Positions 9,224 to 16,580 of a DNA stretch of 21,326 bases are shown in pieces. Under the pieces are notes generated by a model. The model was not told where the DNA came from. It was given only the letters and a program-made list of their open reading frames with translations, and did no database searches. Origin of the DNA: Candidatus Hadarchaeum sp. (GTDB lineage: Archaea; Hadarchaeota; Hadarchaeia; Hadarchaeales; Hadarchaeaceae). Position 1 is the first letter of the stretch; each line of letters begins with the position of its first letter. The stretch lies in the NCBI RefSeq assembly GCF_049969415.1, contig NZ_JBMFOX010000022.1:1-21326 (forward strand), given 5' to 3'. The position numbers and the translations under genes were made by a program.

Positions 9224-10584
9224 CTTGGCTGGCCTCCTTCGGCAGCGATTTTCAGCGCTTTGAGAATGGCTTTGGCCTTATGCTCAGTTTCGAGCCATTC
9301 CCTCTCCGGTTCCGAGTCCGCCACTATACCCGCCCCGGCCTGCACGTAGGCGCGGTTCCCCTCCGCGACCAGCGTTCTGATGGTTATGGCGAAGTCCGCG
9401 TTGCCGTTGCAGGAGAAGTAGCCCACCGCCCCAGCATATGGACCTCTTCTGACGGGCTCGAGTTCTTCAATGATTTCCATGGCCCTCAACTTGGGCGCTC
9501 CTGACACCGTTCCCGCGGGAAAGACCGCCTTTAAAGCATCATAGCTATCGCAGCCGTCTTTGAGTTTTCCCGTCACCCGGGAAACCAGGTGCTGAACGTG
9601 GCTGTACTTGTAAATTCTCATGAACTCCTGCACGTTGACCGACCCGTATTCGGAGATTCGCCCCAAGTCGTTCCTGGCTAGATCCACCAGCATCACGTGT
9701 TCGGCCTGTTCCTTAGGATCCCGCGTAAGCTCCAACGCAAGTGCTTCGTCTGCCTCACGGTTTCCCTTGTCCCGCGGCCTCGTGCCAGCAATTGGAAAGG
9801 TCTCGACATCCCTCCCTTCAACTCTCATTAGCATTTCAGGACTTGAACCCACGATCTGACGGCTTCCCATCTTCAGGAAGTACATGTGGGAGGAGGGGTT
9901 AATCTGCCGCAGCGCCACGTAAAATGGAACAAGGCTTCCGTGAAAGTTGAACTCGTAACGCTTGGAGAGCACGACTTGGAAGACATCGCCAGAGACAATA
10001 TATTCTTTTGACTTTCGCACCATGTCCTCAAAATGCTTTTTTTCGAGGTTCACTTTGGGTTGCGAGCAAATTAGTGGAGAAGGGTTGGAGGGTTCCTCAG
10101 CAATGGTCTCGATTTCATTTAAGCGATTCTCCCCGTGGTGAAAGTAAAGAAATTCACCCTTTTTATGATCAAATATCAATCCGTCACGGTAGATACCCAT
10201 TTCGAGGTCAGGGAAGCCGAAAACATCCGTTGCGTTCTCAGCTATTTTTTCCCAGTATCTGATGGCATCATAGGAGATGTAACCCACCGCCCCACCCATA
10301 AATCTGAAGCCCCCATGAGCCACACCGGCATCTACGACAAATTTTTTCAGCAGCGGCAGCGGATCTGAGGTCTTTTCTCCAATCTTTTCACCCTCGTCCC
10401 TGTCATAGACCTCTAGCTTGCCGTTCTTCACGCTGACGATGGTTCGCGGCTCAAACCCGAGGAACGAGTATTCAGCAAGTTTCTCTGGTCCTTCAACGGA
10501 CTCCAGGATATAGGCATAATCGAATTGGTCGTAAAGACGGGTAAAGATCTCGAGGGGCGAGGTTTTGAGACTGGTCCGGATCAA
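9220..10584 (-). CDS. trpE: Anthranilate synthase component I (true start uncertain; possibly ATG 10624 via +1 frameshift)
   Basis: ILES-x10-[76 protein letters not shown]. The frame stays open upstream of TTG 10584 (..RIAFGQPKPEAS) with no ATG/GTG/TTG in that stretch. Confidence 0.96.
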
Positions 10585-10597
10585 GCTAGCTTCAGGC

Positions 10598-10624
10598 TTA
10601 GGCTGGCCAAAGGCTATCCTCCAT
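10598..10624 (-). promoter_or_regulatory. Trp-codon-containing leader ORF MEDSLWPA* with candidate +1 shift site CTT-TGG-C
   Basis: ATG GAG GAT AGC CTT TGG CCA GCC TAA, preceded by G-rich RBS-like GAGGGGGGCGTG. The +1 frame (TTT 10611, GGC CAG CCT..) is the trpE frame. Confidence 0.55.
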
Positions 10625-10649
10625 TGGTTACACGCCCCCCTCTTTCATA

Positions 10650-10690
10650 TGATTGTTATTAATCAAAGGACATATTTAAGCTTTAGTGGA
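10650..10690 (-). promoter_or_regulatory. Putative trp operon promoter (BRE/TATA) with operator-like inverted repeat
   Basis: Minus strand CACTAAAGCTTAAATA (TATA 10679-10673), plus TGATT-N6-AATCA at 10650-10665 between the TATA box and the expected start site. Confidence 0.55.
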
Positions 10691-10906
10691 CAAAAATGAT
10701 CATTAGAGGGGGGGTGCTGGTGATGGTCTGGATGTGGTTGGAGAAATCAAACGCCATATGGCTATCAGTGATTCTCTATTTCTGCTGTTACGCTTGGGGC
10801 AACGTTGAAGAGAATAACGATGTTAGTTGTGAAACAAACGAGTGGTAATGTCTTCCATAGGAAATTAATCAAGATCTCGTTTGCGAGGTGAGGACGGCAT
10901 TGTTCT

Positions 10907-11767
10907 TCAGGTTGGCTTGGCTGCGTTAAGTTCTTTTCCAAAAAGACTCGCACCTAGCTTGGAGTGAAAATTGCAAAACTCGCTTTCCTTGGGCCCCAGT
11001 TGCGCTAGGATGACTTCCTCCTGCCAGTGGGCGTTGTACAGGCGACAGGTCTTGACCTCACAGAAGGGGTTAGAGATCAGATGGTAGAACAGCGCCTGCA
11101 TCACATACCCCTTCATCACCTCGGTGAGCCTCTCGTCGTCGTAGTCGATGAAGCGGTCGCGGAACTGCTCCTTCAGCTCCTCGTAGGCCGCGGCAGCCCC
11201 GAGCGCTAGGTAGTGCTGCTTCAGCGCGTAGAACTCCTTGGGCTTCGCCGGGGCCTCGACGATGCCGGTCGTTGAGATCAGGCACGGGAAACTGTAGAGG
11301 CTCACGCGGGCGTGATACCGGGCGTCGGACTCGTCCCAGGTCCCGAAGAGCCGGTTGGTGAAGACGAGGTGCAGGTCTTCCTGGGTCCGCTCCGCCTCCG
11401 GGATCAGCTTCAGCGCCAGCCCCCGGAGGGCGACCCCATCGTAGAGCAGCCCCAAAATCCTCTGCTCGGGTTGTCGTAGCAGCTTCAGCTCGAGGTTGAT
11501 TTCCGCGGTAAGGGGCTCAAAGTCGCGGTCCTTTCTCGTCGGATCACGGATCCTCGCGCCGGCGAACTCCCGGGCCAGCTCCTTGGCTCGCGGCTCGTCA
11601 TGAATGTAGAAGAGTGGAGCCCGAATGTCCACCGATACTCGGCCCAGTTTCTCGGCCAGATAACGGGCGATCTCCTTCAGGTCGAGCCTTTTGCAGGACC
11701 TGTCCTCATAAAGGTGGATCCGTGGCAGCGGTTTACTTGGTTTCCCGGAGCTTCTCATAGGCGACAT
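10907..11767 (-). CDS. DUF6775-like putative metallopeptidase-fold protein (archaemetzincin-like Cys motif, no HExxH)
   Basis: [30 protein letters not shown]-x4[11 protein letters not shown]..FCxxH. Family recalled from memory. Start uncertain (11767, 11758, or a CTG just after the thi4 stop). Confidence 0.7.
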
Positions 11768-13460: not shown

Positions 13461-14816
13461 ATGGAGCTGGGTTCTCCCCAAGAGCTCGTTTTTGGCAGGT
13501 CAAAGTATCCGCTGCGATATGGTTTGAGTCTTGAGATCGGCAACGGGAGCGTGGTGCCTGAGCTGAAGTATTCTCCGCGGCCCGGCAAAGAGCAGAGCTT
13601 GGACTCGCTGAAGAGGGAGTACGAGACGATAACCAAGGACATCCTCGATCGGGCGGTTGACATCGGACTGCCAGCGGTGCAGCTTGAAACTGAGCATGTG
13701 GTTCAGATGACGAGCAACCCGAAATGGGGAGAGGAGATTACCGCGCTGCAGAAGGAGCTGCTGGAGAGGTATCATGACGAGCACGGGATTAGCTGTGCCC
13801 TGAGGCAGACCATCGCCGATATCAGGAAGGCCGAGGCAGGTATGAGGGAGGGGGAGGAGTTTACCGCAGTGATGGAATCCTTCGACCTGTGCGCGAAGGC
13901 TGGGGCCGATGTCTTGGCGATAGAGTCCTTGGGCGGCAAGGAGGTCTTCGACTACGCGATAGCGAGACAGGACATAAGGGGAATCCTCTTTTCTTTGGGC
14001 GTTCTCGCCTGCAGCGATATGGACTTTCTCTGGAAGAACATCGTCAGCATAGCCGGAAGGCACGGCGTCGTCCCTGGCGGTGACACCGATTGCGCGCGCT
14101 CAAACACGGCCATGTTTCTCGCAGGAGGTTACCAGAACAAGGAGTTGCCCCACACCATCGCCGCCATTGTCCGGGCGGCCGGGGCCTCCAGGTCTCTGGT
14201 GGCGTTTGAGGCGGGAGCAACCGGCCCGGACAAGGACTGTGGATACGAGGGCGTGATCATCAAGGCCATCACCGGAAGGCCGATCTCGCAGGAGGGCAAA
14301 AGTTCTGCCTGCGCCCACTCGAGCCTCTTGGGCAACGTTGCCGCCGTCGCCTGCGATCTCTGGTCGAACGAGGCGGTCCAGTATGGCGACATGTTCGGCG
14401 GCAGCACCCCGCAGGTTTTCACCGAAATTCTGGGTTACGATGTTGCCCTGTTTAACGCCGCCCTGGCCACGGGCAACGAGATCAGGCTTAGGAATTTGCT
14501 GGCGCTCTCGGACAAATACCGGGACCCGCAGGCGCTCATTCTGATCCCGGAAAATGCCTACCGGATCGGCAAGGTGATCGTGGAAAATTCCGGTGATAGT
14601 TATCTCCGTACCCGGGCGGCCATGATGGAGGCGGCCCGAATAATCGATGAGGAGAAGGAGAAGCTTCATCTTTCCGAGCTGGAACTCCGGGCGCTGAAAA
14701 AGACAATTTCCGCGCTCTCTCAATTCCCAGACGATGGGGACCGGTTCACCTCCGAATGCATTGAAATTTACGAAAAGCTGGTTCCCTCCTTCAATCCCAA
14801 GAATTACGGTCTCTGA
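13461..14816 (+). CDS. mtaB: Methanol:corrinoid methyltransferase MtaB
   Basis: FG.SKYP..GL.LEIG.G, PRPG.E, LETEHV. Zn-ligand motifs IESLGGKE, GDTDCA, GPDKDCGYE; also EGKSSACAHS, DLWSNE. May start at ATA 13443. Confidence 0.95.
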   Translation: MELGSPQELVFGRSKYPLRYGLSLEIGNGSVVPELKYSPRPGKEQSLDSLKREYETITKDILDRAVDIGLPAVQLETEHVVQMTSNPKWGEEITALQKELLERYHDEHGISCALRQTIADIRKAEAGMREGEEFTAVMESFDLCAKAGADVLAIESLGGKEVFDYAIARQDIRGILFSLGVLACSDMDFLWKNIVSIAGRHGVVPGGDTDCARSNTAMFLAGGYQNKELPHTIAAIVRAAGASRSLVAFEAGATGPDKDCGYEGVIIKAITGRPISQEGKSSACAHSSLLGNVAAVACDLWSNEAVQYGDMFGGSTPQVFTEILGYDVALFNAALATGNEIRLRNLLALSDKYRDPQALILIPENAYRIGKVIVENSGDSYLRTRAAMMEAARIIDEEKEKLHLSELELRALKKTISALSQFPDDGDRFTSECIEIYEKLVPSFNPKNYGL

Positions 14817-14825
14817 GGTGATGAG

Positions 14826-16580
14826 ATGAGCATGACAGCAAAGAAACGGGTTATTTCCGCAATTCTGGGCGGCAGGGTTGACCGGATACCCGCCACCGCC
14901 GTGTGTCAGACGGCCACGCACGACCAGATGCAGCTGACGGGAGCCAGCTGGCCCGAGGCCCACCTGAACGCGGAAAAAATGGCAAAACTGGCCAGCGCGG
15001 CCCATACCTACACCGGTCTTGAGACGGTAAGGGTCCCGTTCGATCAGGCCGTGGAGGCCGAGGCCCTAGGAGGAAGGATGGAGATTAAGGGGGAGATACC
15101 GGCCATCGTTGAGCACCTGAGGGATTTCTCGGAGTTCAGGATTCCAGAGAACTTCCTCGAGCGCGGCAGGCTGCCCGTCGTGCTTGACGCCGTTGAGCGT
15201 CTCGCCAGAGAATTTGGGGAGAAGCTGCCGGTGATGGCGGGAATAATCGGGCCGTTCTCGGTCGCGACCCAGGTCTTTGAACCGAGCGACATGCTGAAGT
15301 GGACCATCACCCGGCAGCGGGAGAGCGCGGAGGTGCTGTCGGCGCTCGTGGACCCCCTGCTTGAATATGCGAACGAGCTGGCGAGGCGAGGTGCGGATGT
15401 GATCGTCATCGAGGACATGTTTTCCTCCCAGCTCGGAAGCAAGGTCTTCAGGGCCGTGGCCATGGAGCCGCTGAAGAGGCTCGTGGACGGGATCAAGAAC
15501 ATCGTCGTTATTCACATGTGCGGAAATATCACCAAGATGCTCCCGGACGTGATCGAGGTGGGTGCCGAGGGGCTGAGCATAGCTAGGGAGACCGACTTGG
15601 CCGCCGCCGTCAGCAGCGCGAGGGGGAGGGTTTCGATCATCGGCAACGTTGACCCGCTCGATCTTCTCTTCAAAGGAGGTCCTGCGGTGGAGGCCGCCGT
15701 CAGGGCCGCCATCGATGGAGGAGTGGACCTTGTGGCTCCGGGCTGTAGTCTGGCACCGGGCACCCCGATTGAAAATATAAAGCAGATGGTGATCCAGACG
15801 CAGCGCTATGGGCGTAGGGCTGGCGAGGTAACTCCCTCGGCGGTGGACTTCAGCAAGATTTTTGTGAAGTACGGGGTGACCAAGGGGCCCGCCACAGCTT
15901 ACGACCAGCAGCTGCCGGCCGACCCAGCTCTGGCCGAGGTGGCCCGAGCGGTGGTCAGGGGAGACACCGGCGCAGTGGAGACGGCGGTTGTTGCCGCGCT
16001 GGAGAAGTGGGGCCCCTTGAAAGTTATTTCTGATGGGTTGACCGGCGGGATGAACATCGTCAGCAGGATGTGGGAGGATGGCGTCTACTTCCTTCCTGAG
16101 GTCGTGAACGCCGCCGATGCCATGCAGGCCGGAATAGCGCTGTGCGAGAAGAGACTGGGCCGAGCCTCGGTTAAGAAGGGCAGGATCATTACCCATGTGG
16201 CCGAGGGGGATATTCACGACATCGGCAAGAACATCGTCTCCGCCCTGCTGCGCGCGAATGGCTATGAGGTCATAGACCTTGGAAGGGATGTTCCCGTTGA
16301 GAAGGTTGTCGAGGAGACGAAGACGCAGCGGCCACTCTTGGTGATGGGCACGGCCCTGATGACCACCACCATGACGGCGTTTCCCAGATTGGTAGAAAGG
16401 CTGAAACAGGAGGGCCTAGAGACAACGCTTGCCTGCGGCGGGGGGGCGGTTAATCAGGAGTACGTGGAGACCTTCGACCACAGCGTCTTCGGGGACAAGG
16501 CAATAGACGCCGTGAAGATCGCCGAGCTGGCGCTAAAAGGGCTTTCTTGGCTCGAGATCAGGGAGAAGATTCATAAGTAG
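14826..16580 (+). CDS. Fusion of MtaA/URO-D-family methylcobamide:thiol methyltransferase (N-term) and MtaC-like corrinoid protein (C-term)
   Basis: N-terminal ~330 aa: VCQTAT, WPEAH, VPFD..VEAEALG, GPFS, Zn motif IHMCG, APGC..TP.EN. C-terminal: B12 cap (GL..GM..V..W..G.YFLPEV) and EGDIHDIGKNIV, DLGRDVP, ALMTTTM, GGGAV. GAGGTGA RBS. Confidence 0.93.
   Translation: MSMTAKKRVISAILGGRVDRIPATAVCQTATHDQMQLTGASWPEAHLNAEKMAKLASAAHTYTGLETVRVPFDQAVEAEALGGRMEIKGEIPAIVEHLRDFSEFRIPENFLERGRLPVVLDAVERLAREFGEKLPVMAGIIGPFSVATQVFEPSDMLKWTITRQRESAEVLSALVDPLLEYANELARRGADVIVIEDMFSSQLGSKVFRAVAMEPLKRLVDGIKNIVVIHMCGNITKMLPDVIEVGAEGLSIARETDLAAAVSSARGRVSIIGNVDPLDLLFKGGPAVEAAVRAAIDGGVDLVAPGCSLAPGTPIENIKQMVIQTQRYGRRAGEVTPSAVDFSKIFVKYGVTKGPATAYDQQLPADPALAEVARAVVRGDTGAVETAVVAALEKWGPLKVISDGLTGGMNIVSRMWEDGVYFLPEVVNAADAMQAGIALCEKRLGRASVKKGRIITHVAEGDIHDIGKNIVSALLRANGYEVIDLGRDVPVEKVVEETKTQRPLLVMGTALMTTTMTAFPRLVERLKQEGLETTLACGGGAVNQEYVETFDHSVFGDKAIDAVKIAELALKGLSWLEIREKIHK

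Follow-up and report, generated by a model that had tools for sequence, protein, structure and literature searches.

A candidate tryptophan-responsive +1 ribosomal frameshift at a conserved NTT-TGG leader site upstream of archaeal trpE

The bacterial gene prfB, which encodes release factor 2 (RF2), is autoregulated by a +1 frameshift at CUU UGA C, with an internal Shine-Dalgarno (SD) sequence lying 3 nt upstream, and bacterial trp operons are subject to attenuation, in which the ribosome controls transcription through translation of the Trp codons in the trpL leader peptide. Frameshifting upon tryptophan shortage also occurs in human cells. Among archaea, the protein TrpY represses the trpEGCFBAD operon of Methanothermobacter through TGTACA "TRP boxes". 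To our knowledge, very little is known about the regulation of amino-acid synthesis in this domain, and no archaeal counterpart of leader-peptide attenuation or of T-boxes has been described. Here we report on a short leader open reading frame (ORF) that precedes trpE, the gene for anthranilate synthase component I, in a 21,326-nt stretch of DNA from Candidatus Hadarchaeum sp. (assembly GCF_049969415.1, contig NZ_JBMFOX010000022.1; hereafter the window). Comparison of this leader with those of archaeal relatives indicates that translation very likely reaches trpE through a +1 ribosomal frameshift of some kind, and that this is probably a programmed shift at a conserved NTT-TGG site that responds to tryptophan.

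The prfB frameshift is treated in passages of a 2016 review of recoding (PMC5009743), and bacterial trp attenuation in parts of the literature represented by PMC6614838 and PMC7298713. Passages of the former review and of a 2021 review of archaeal recoding (PMC8211752) also describe the Ty1 site CUU AGG C, where a P-site CUU slips by +1 while the A site holds a sense codon read by a scarce tRNA, as well as the antizyme +1 frameshift, which serves a metabolite circuit as both sensor and effector. A further precedent is the "hungry codon" frameshifting seen upon amino-acid starvation (Gallant), the natural use of which is called unclear in the portion of the 2016 review that addresses it (PMC5009743). 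For archaea, the corresponding portion of the 2021 review gives one −1 case as the sole frameshift shown for a cellular gene (PMC8211752). No description of archaeal frameshifting involving trpE, anthranilate synthase or tryptophan was found in the full-text literature, a coverage outside which subscription-only papers and supplements lie, and the available parts of the 2016 review (PMC5009743), of a 2013 GeneTack survey and of the 2021 review (PMC8211752) make no mention of a trpE frameshift.

In the window, trpE and its leader lie on the minus strand, to which all coordinates of the locus given below refer. The trpE frame (frame 0) is open from position 10647, and the protein read from the TTT at 10611-10609 to the stop at 9220 matches the NCBIfam model TIGR01820 (TrpE-arch) over profile positions 1-448 of 449, with E 8.8e-157 and 523 bits. 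As the curated cut-off of 512.05 is passed, this is a bona fide archaeal-type TrpE. The profile begins at residue 19 of the frame read from 10611, which is 9 residues past a TTG at 10584-10582. This TTG is the sole canonical in-frame start codon, there being no in-frame ATG for full-length TrpE, and it is the start returned by mechanical ORF calling. No GGAG, GAGG, GGTG or GGGG occurs within the 24 nt 5′ of it, in keeping with the first-pass annotation of the window, which had remarked that this codon lacks a ribosome-binding site. Relatives carry CTT, ATT or TTT at the same position, and TTG 10584 is most likely an ordinary leucine codon.

The initiation signals of the locus lie instead at an out-of-frame ATG (10624-10622), just as that annotation had described. 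A G-rich, SD-like run, GAGGGGGG (10642-10635), ends 10 nt 5′ of this codon and is assigned to it; across the genome the GGAGG-to-ATG spacing is mostly 5-10 nt with a peak at 6-8, eight genes having the 10-nt spacing, and the 3′ end of 16S rRNA found in the assembly reads GGATCACCTCCT. The ATG opens a leader ORF of eight codons (10624-10598), ATG GAG GAT AGC CTT TGG CCA GCC TAA, which encodes MEDSLWPA in the −1 frame relative to trpE and ends at the TAA at 10600-10598, soon after the site in question. Its CTT occupies 10612-10610 and its single TGG occupies 10609-10607, such that a +1 slip from CTT onto the overlapping TTT within the proposed shift site CTT TGG C (10612-10606) would bring GGC (10608-10606) into the A site and enter the trpE frame; the coordinates bear out the frame arithmetic on which the original proposal was built. 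The predicted trans-frame product, MEDSL joined to GQPK..., has 467 aa. An internal GGAGG (10622-10618), also listed in the first-pass annotation, ends 5 nt upstream of the CTT. What that annotation described of the sequence is thus accurate throughout.

To gauge how often such an arrangement arises by chance, the whole 1.47-Mb, 138-contig assembly was scanned for a start codon followed by three to five codons, NTTTGG and, in the +1 frame, an ORF of 150 codons or more. Among the 24 matches, trpE alone combines an ATG start with the lack of both an upstream in-frame start and an in-frame ATG in the next 50 codons. Four of the other matches were inspected and taken to be chance occurrences, three having an ordinary ATG just downstream and one being apparently non-coding, and the remaining 19 were judged from the table of matches. 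The arrangement at trpE is thus beyond chance. No other gene with an NTT-TGG leader was found in the assembly under the same ORF threshold, in a scan that did not seek leaders with codons other than TGG.

The first-pass annotation had set beforehand, as a check, that related genomes be aligned for a conserved out-of-frame ATG with the shift-site codons, and an out-of-frame ATG followed by NTT-TGG is indeed found across at least three archaeal phyla in a constant frame relation. The closest relative, a Hadesarchaea metagenome-assembled genome (MAG) of the same genus with a TrpE 76% identical to that of the window, carries the leader ATG AGG GAT TGC GTT TGG CCA G.., and in its frame 0 a TAA TGA stands just before GGG ATT GCG TTT GGC. 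The relative's leader is thus displaced from the trpE frame by one base as well, which excludes a single-base sequencing error in the window and speaks against the recent mutation that had been named as a possible refutation. A first set of loci was drawn from protein-seeded searches of species genomes and metagenomes and, together with the window, comprised 199 loci with usable upstream sequence among the matches listed; these were sorted into 68 archaeal and 131 bacterial loci by record titles or, for untitled metagenome contigs, by TrpE identity and N-terminal type. They were searched in any frame for a start codon, three to five codons and NTTTGG no more than 200 nt upstream of the TrpE core. 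Among these listed matches, the motif occurs in 44 of the 68 archaeal loci, with its TTT in the trpE frame in all 44 (one locus, L113, has an extra off-frame match further upstream), and at none of the 131 bacterial loci is it in frame, the five loose matches there being all off-frame. The 24 archaeal loci without the motif include 14 of Thermoplasmata type (L049, L219-L231), the Bathyarchaeia-like L034, L193 and L194, and L065 and L126, all of these having an ordinary ATG. Named carriers belong to Hadesarchaea, Bathyarchaeia, Jordarchaeia, Calditenuaceae, Wolframiiraptor, Nitrososphaerales, Nitrosopumilales and Nitrosotenuis, and the leader is also present in Caldarchaeales and Nitrosopumilaceae.

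A survey blind to the motif gave a similar picture. Of 301 genomes from the phylum of one thaumarchaeal carrier, 163 had a match to a TrpE profile at E ≤1e-60, from which the 110 best (30 loci and 80 regions) were used, one match at a contig edge being omitted; the roughly 53 weaker matches left out have alignments that begin near profile position 60-97. The motif is present in 93 of the 108 usable loci among these best matches (92 distinct sequences), always in frame and with no stop between TTT and the TrpE core, and the 15 loci without it all have a canonical in-frame start. In a sample of 151 Asgard genomes, 24 had TrpE matches and 20 of these could be anchored. Ten of the 20 carry the standard motif, nine starting with GTG, with GGAGG 8-9 nt 5′ of this GTG in the eight loci with sufficient upstream context; two others share the core AGG CGG GAT NNN GTT TGG with a leader ATG 12-13 codons upstream. 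The commonest form in Nitrosopumilaceae, searched as an exact 18-mer, has 117 matches in the species collection, 110 of which lie upstream of a TrpE N-terminus, in frame and open, and the remaining seven have no adjoining TrpE, at least four being in bacterial records. A search of genome contigs seeded with a thaumarchaeal TrpE returned nearly exclusively unrelated bacteria. Taken across these collections, sequence comparison indicates that the leader element is real, ancient and widespread.

The distribution of TrpE types within this group is uneven. Most relatives from the same genus, family or order have another type of TrpE, only 45-52% identical, with an N-terminus some 20-30 residues longer, no leader and mostly ordinary starts, and the nearest TrpE outside the genus is found in Bathyarchaeia at 66-68% identity; to judge from these identities, the operon may have arrived by transfer, together with its leader. 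Two variants in the phylum sample deserve description in their own right. A subclade without TTTGG (L301, L303, L306, L307, L310 and neighbours) places an ATG or GTG some 32 codons upstream of the core, and several of its members have an out-of-frame ATG a few bases upstream, as in ATGACTCGTGGCT, which resembles the ATGGGTG arrangement and contains no Trp codon. In L331-L336 and L340, the leader takes the form TTG YGG GGY ATG TGY CTT TGG CAG TAA, where the nearest ATG is only two codons before CTT.

The signals for initiation in relatives were compared among 124 distinct carriers, 64 without an in-frame GTG (hereafter the SD-led class) and 60 with one. In the SD-led class, an SD-like motif lies 4-12 nt 5′ of the leader start in 50 of 64 sequences, and a TATA-like box lies 43-59 nt upstream in 52 of 64; the corresponding TATA-to-leader distance in the window is 55 nt. 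In the class with an in-frame GTG, a TATA-like box starts 28-30 nt 5′ of the leader ATG in 49 of 60 sequences, and an SD-like motif occurs in only 11. Archaeal TATA boxes lie at a characteristic distance from the transcription start, and since the 28-30 nt spacing corresponds to this usual distance, the mRNA of the GTG class is expected to have its 5′ end at or next to the out-of-frame ATG and thus to be leaderless. In both classes, the placement of these sequence signals indicates that they serve the leader start and not trpE.

If ribosomes begin at the leader, a change of frame is required to make TrpE, and stop codons in both frames bound the place where this can happen. From the upstream stop to the TrpE core, no ATG, GTG or TTG occurs in the trpE frame in 25 of the 92 distinct phylum-survey sequences and in 18 of the first-set loci; all loci lacking an in-frame start carry the motif, and all those lacking the motif have an in-frame start. 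On the upstream side, 22 of the 43 distinct 19-mers from the SD-led class have a frame-0 TGA overlapping the leader ATG (ATGA), and a frame-0 TAG stands directly 5′ of TTT in seven distinct phylum-survey sequences, six of the Caldarchaeales-like form (e.g., TTG AGA GGC GGT TTA GTT TGG) and one, L327, in which the TAG follows an in-frame GTG (ATG GGT GAT CTA GTT TGG). On the downstream side, the leader stop falls 1-22 codons after NTT across the phylum survey; it lies one codon past TGG in four sequences (L321 and L376-L378, the latter reading CTT TGG TAA), two codons past it in eight more and three in the window. Because stops in both frames bound it, the frame change is confined to NTT-TGG. 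Natural in-frame "fused" variants that might have revealed the residues at the junction were sought among the 15 motif-less loci of the phylum survey, none of which was informative. Two candidate explanations were tried and rejected: transcriptional slippage, given that the T-run has only three to four bases and the G-run is unconserved, and initiation at the ATA at 10617, which the first-pass annotation had listed as a potential start and at which relatives carry ACT or GTC, with the frame-0 TAG of the seven sequences intervening between it and TTT.

Conservation at the site itself is not readily accounted for by the encoded protein. In the 55 carriers with at least 300 TrpE codons, the site is TTT without exception, although TTT represents only 497 of the 1220 Phe codons of these genes (0.41), the other 59% being TTC. 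As TTT is invariant despite the commoner TTC, its third T is held by something beyond Phe coding, and the leader frame owes its TGG to this base. All 124 distinct carriers have an invariant TTTGG, though it was required by the motif search. Relatives share a single conserved TGG in their leaders. The preceding P-site codon is CTT in 58, GTT in 21, ATT in nine and TTT in four of the 92 sequences, with two or three pairs kept after a +1 slip onto UUU, and NTT is codon 5 of the leader in 71 of them. When 38 sequences were anchored at TTTGG, information content was limited to −13..+5 around TTT, falling to nothing downstream; G is near-invariant at −9 (37 of 38), and −11, −10 and −8 are G-rich. 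By analogy with the internal SD of prfB, it is plausible that this G-rich element, which corresponds to the internal GGAGG of the window, acts as a stimulator of slippage.

The linker that follows (10608-10558 in the window, between the shift site and the TrpE core beginning PLEIF..) is unconserved. In relatives it spans 14-29 codons, is poorly conserved and never contains a stop, and among close pairs its mismatches number 41, 28 and 51 at the three codon positions, a weakly coding-like pattern that is not decisive. The coding-type conservation that the first-pass annotation had anticipated for the GQPK segment is accordingly weak, the linker being fast-evolving. With respect to RNA structure, RNAalifold found no consensus pairs in the 38 sequences, single-sequence folds differ from one another, no Rfam family matched at E up to 1, and no terminator-like site occurs within 10350-10950. 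A structure-based attenuator or downstream stimulator was rejected as a conserved feature on these grounds.

A different kind of constraint is apparent immediately before the shift site. The nine bases preceding TTT (10621-10613 in the window) follow, within the SD-led class, the pattern GGN ATH GCN, with every third base free. Read in the trpE frame, the segment G-I-A-F-G gives 17 different peptides among the 43 distinct 19-mers, as compared with 38 in the leader frame, and the trpE-frame changes are conservative (GIAFG, GVAFG, GILFG and GIAIG, the last two in Asgard). Two Asgard loci have a tandem copy of the unit. The third base of ATH is G in only two of the 43 sequences, which fits selection against an unregulated in-frame ATG. 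To judge from these patterns, the periodicity looks like frame-0 coding upstream of the shift site, which the frameshift model does not explain. Frame-0 coding there is nevertheless impossible in the seven sequences where TAG precedes TTT, and it would not explain TTT either. The periodicity may reflect an RNA-level constraint, a stimulator read in triplets or a second minor route, and it may mark a new kind of frameshift stimulator.

These observations suggest the following scheme for the window. The trp mRNA would begin approximately 25 nt upstream of the SD-led AUG at 10624, where every ribosome would start and read AUG GAG GAU AGC CUU, thereby placing peptidyl-tRNA-Leu on CUU in the P site and UGG, the sole Trp codon, in the A site. 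With charged tRNA-Trp plentiful, UGG would be read and translation would end at UAA after eight codons, yielding no TrpE. With Trp-tRNA scarce, the A site would stand empty and the P-site tRNA could re-pair on UUU, so that GGC would be read next and translation would continue through the linker into TrpE, and probably, through ATGA coupling, into TrpG and the genes after it in trpEGDCBA. Slippage may be aided by the G-rich stretch 5-6 nt upstream, which is GGAGG here, and a ribosome paused at codon 5 would presumably cover the start codon, such that no second ribosome would load or collide with it. Feedback through charged tRNA-Trp is the simplest logic for such a device, because the leader has no Trp codon besides the one in the A site, and trpE is the first gene of the tryptophan pathway. 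That the frame is changed by the ribosome, by P-site slippage, we infer from the comparative sequence evidence.

Other readings of the same leader have to be weighed against this scheme. The leader might be a regulatory upstream ORF, a decoy or leader peptide with a Trp codon whose ribosome modulates trpE by occlusion or stalling, with trpE initiated separately in its own frame at TTG 10584 in the window, at an in-frame GTG in Nitrososphaerota and at non-canonical codons elsewhere. We consider this unlikely, although it has real points in its favor: 50 of the 92 distinct phylum-survey sequences, mostly Nitrososphaerota-like forms of the leaderless-type TATA class, have an in-frame GTG three codons before TTT, such that the shift is not strictly needed in them and trpE could to some extent be initiated directly; six codons past TTT, where the window has CCT, an in-frame ATG is present in the closest relative; G-I-A-F-G is conserved in frame 0; and one archaeal locus without the pattern, L218, keeps the core and the in-frame GTG with TGG in place of the leader ATG. 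Separate initiation does not, however, account for the 25 sequences and 18 further loci without any in-frame start codon, for the TAG that follows the in-frame GTG in L327 or stands directly before TTT in six more lineages, or for SD sequences and leaderless-type TATA spacings that match the out-of-frame start and no frame-0 codon; TTG 10584 is unconserved and SD-less, and leader stops at such variable distances after NTT fit termination-reinitiation poorly. It also gives the wrong direction of control, less TrpE at low tryptophan, because the supposed frame-0 start would be hidden beneath a ribosome that stalls at codon 6. Scarcely more probable, and if anything marginally less so, is a constitutive +1 frameshift that sets a fixed low level of TrpE or answers to another signal, UGG being merely a moderately slow codon. 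All of the evidence for a frame change serves this idea equally well, and TGTACA-like promoter boxes (see below) could supply a tryptophan response at transcription. It leaves unexplained why the A-site codon is a Trp codon before the first gene of the tryptophan pathway in all carriers (with the reservation that TTTGG was required by the search), why every locus lacking an in-frame start has TTTGG, why a variant with CAT in the P site still keeps TGG, and why the assembly scan, restricted to TGG leaders and ORFs of at least 150 codons, met the NTT-TGG arrangement at no other gene.

The periodicity before TTT raises the further idea that the frame is changed right after initiation, with one base skipped after AUG and GGN AUH GCN UUU GGN read as the N-terminus of TrpE, the Trp codon being incidental or having a second role. 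The period-3 conservation, the free third positions in the trpE frame and the conservative changes are what it would predict, and in three Asgard loci frame 0 is open for 12-13 codons up to the site, beginning right after the ATG in L519 and L520 and two codons further on in L518. This early shift is nonetheless improbable: the seven distinct sequences with a frame-0 TAG directly before TTT would not permit it, Phe coding alone is insufficient to keep TTT from ever being TTC when 59% of Phe codons are TTC, and no slippery sequence is conserved at AUG, the fourth base being A in 22 and G in 21 of 43 sequences. Least probable of all, and refuted for practical purposes, is an assembly or sequencing error or a recently broken gene. 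The window does belong to a 138-contig MAG, a nearby G-run could invite indels, and the public contig available lies off the site (10708-10964), but independent assemblies, some with contigs exceeding 1.5 Mb, show the same arrangement in more than 120 distinct sequences.

A tryptophan-responsive shift at NTT-TGG also faces difficulties of its own. In addition to the in-frame GTG and ATG codons and the frame-0 periodicity already discussed, tRNAs reading GUU or AUU would have a first-position mismatch after the slip and re-pair poorly on UUU, and in the Asgard variant in which CAT-TGG replaces NTT-TGG, CAT cannot re-pair at all. The G-rich element lies 5-6 nt from the slippery codon as compared with 3 nt in prfB, and a conserved downstream structure is lacking. 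For the window itself, the public reads consist of three DNA contig runs from one study, with a single contig over 10708-10964, outside the shift site, and no RNA run holding this stretch appears in the public run listing. ARAGORN found neither tRNA-Trp nor tRNA-Leu(GAG) among 32 tRNAs, an inventory that is uninformative because the tRNA set of the MAG is incomplete. That frameshifting rises as Trp-tRNA falls is, finally, purely what we infer from the identity of the codon and the gene. All of these points weigh against the scheme, yet the sequence evidence as a whole supports the interpretation offered in the first-pass annotation as the best-supported one. The extension of this view, that many archaea (Nitrosopumilaceae, Bathyarchaeia, Caldarchaeales, some Asgard and this methanol-using Hadesarchaeon) control tryptophan synthesis by an amino-acid-sensing +1 frameshift, is one toward which we lean only slightly.

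The promoter region of the locus suggests that the leader may not act alone. In the window, the promoter element AAAGCTTAAATAT (10684-10672) comprises a BRE-like (B recognition element) AAAGC and the TATA box TTAAATAT at 10679-10672, and the promoter block TTTTGTNCACTAAAGCTTAAATATGTNCTTTGATTAATAA is almost identical in the closest relative. Just upstream of the BRE/TATA lies a TGTCCA box (10692-10687), one mismatch from TGTACA and a possible operator. Boxes of the form TG[TC][AG]CA occur 5′ of the leader in 50 of 124 related loci, as compared with 7 of 124 in a downstream control stretch, and TGTACA-like boxes flank the BRE/TATA of many trpE promoters, including those of the other Hadesarchaea TrpE clade. 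They resemble the TrpY operator, the TRP box of Methanothermobacter, and their sequence and placement suggest a second, transcriptional layer of control. A six-codon mini-ORF on the same strand (10648-10628; ATG AAA GAG GGG GGC GTG TAA) starts about 31 nt beyond the first base of the TATA box, near the expected 5′ end of the mRNA, and contains the SD-like run. Because the matching ATG of the closest relative differs in frame and length, this mini-ORF is probably incidental.

Downstream of trpE, the operon continues on the minus strand in the order trpE-G-D-C-B-A, with overlaps of stop and start codons. At the trpE-trpG junction the overlap is an ATGA at 9223-9220, as seen from the ORF coordinates and as the first-pass annotation had noted, and this overlap suggests translational coupling of trpE and trpG. 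The genes that follow are trpG (9223-8642, identified by TIGR00566) and, by NCBIfam and Pfam matches, trpD (8645-7572), trpC (7600-6794), trpB (6707-5532) and trpA (5551-4685). Upstream of the trp promoter lies a gene for a probable metallopeptidase (DUF6775/DUF7001; 10907-11767, minus strand) with no evident link to the trp operon. On the plus strand, 13461-16580 contains a methanol-corrinoid methyltransferase gene, MtaB (NF040651, E 6e-199, just under the cut-off), followed by a protein in which a URO-D/MtaA-like domain is joined to B12-binding domains; together these represent a methanol methyltransferase system in a Hadesarchaea-type assembly. Elsewhere in the assembly (G000), contigs C69, C73, C74 and C85 bear four different 16S rRNA 3′ ends, and small contigs carry tRNA-Ile(GAT) and tRNA-Ala(TGC) in four copies each. 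These are probably fragments of the rRNA operons of other organisms binned into the MAG.

If the proposed scheme is true, it would represent a third logic for sensing charged tRNA, in which the choice of reading frame, and neither RNA structure nor a protein, carries the signal. It would also be the first conserved cellular +1 frameshift in archaea and the first natural "hungry-codon" switch for a biosynthetic operon, an archaeal counterpart of attenuation that dispenses with RNA structure, and would thereby answer the question of a natural use for starvation slippage that is left open in the relevant portion of the 2016 review (PMC5009743). The leader is present in cultivable ammonia oxidisers, which makes it directly testable. 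A practical corollary concerns annotation: the N-terminus assigned to TrpE in these lineages is likely to be too short or wrongly placed, because mechanical calling gives an SD-less TTG in the window and many relatives have no in-frame start at all.

Of the systems introduced at the outset, prfB is the closest in architecture. In both, a P-site CUU followed by U permits re-pairing on UUU, a slowly read UGR codon occupies the A site and is followed by C, and a G-rich, SD-like element lies shortly upstream. The full-length product seems reachable only by a change of frame, the zero frame ending soon afterwards in a short dead-end peptide, and this product in turn replenishes, at trpE as proposed here, the factor by which the A-site codon is decoded, a negative feedback. 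The A-site codon at trpE, however, is UGG, a sense codon read by tRNA, whereas that of prfB is UGA, read by RF2 itself. The feedback proposed here would therefore be indirect, proceeding from TrpE to tryptophan to Trp-tRNA, and would operate in archaea; the shift would occur at leader codons 5-6 as compared with codon 26 of the gene; the G-rich element is spaced more widely; and the P-site codon can also be GUU, AUU or UUU. The trp attenuator offers a parallel in function, as a very short leader ORF before trpE would read the level of charged tRNA-Trp through the speed at which a Trp codon is decoded. It differs in having two or more Trp codons in tandem where the present leader has one, and in its terminator and antiterminator hairpins, none of which were found here; its output, moreover, is continued transcription, whereas the output proposed for this leader is a change of reading frame into the structural gene.

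The remaining systems share individual components with the trpE leader. Like TrpY, it concerns the control of archaeal trpE, and many of the present loci have TGTACA-like boxes flanking the TATA box; TrpY control is protein-mediated and transcriptional, and the two may coexist. Ty1 provides a precedent for a P-site CUU that slips at a slowly decoded sense codon, but the scarcity of the tRNA is there fixed and non-regulatory, and antizyme, which does respond to a metabolite, does so to polyamines and at a stop codon; amino-acid synthesis is controlled by neither of the two, and both lie outside the archaea. Hungry-codon frameshifting supplies the remaining component, an empty A site at a starved sense codon that lets the P-site tRNA slip. 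Where such events have been described as errors or laboratory phenomena, the leader of archaeal trpE would put them to use as a conserved, built-in switch.

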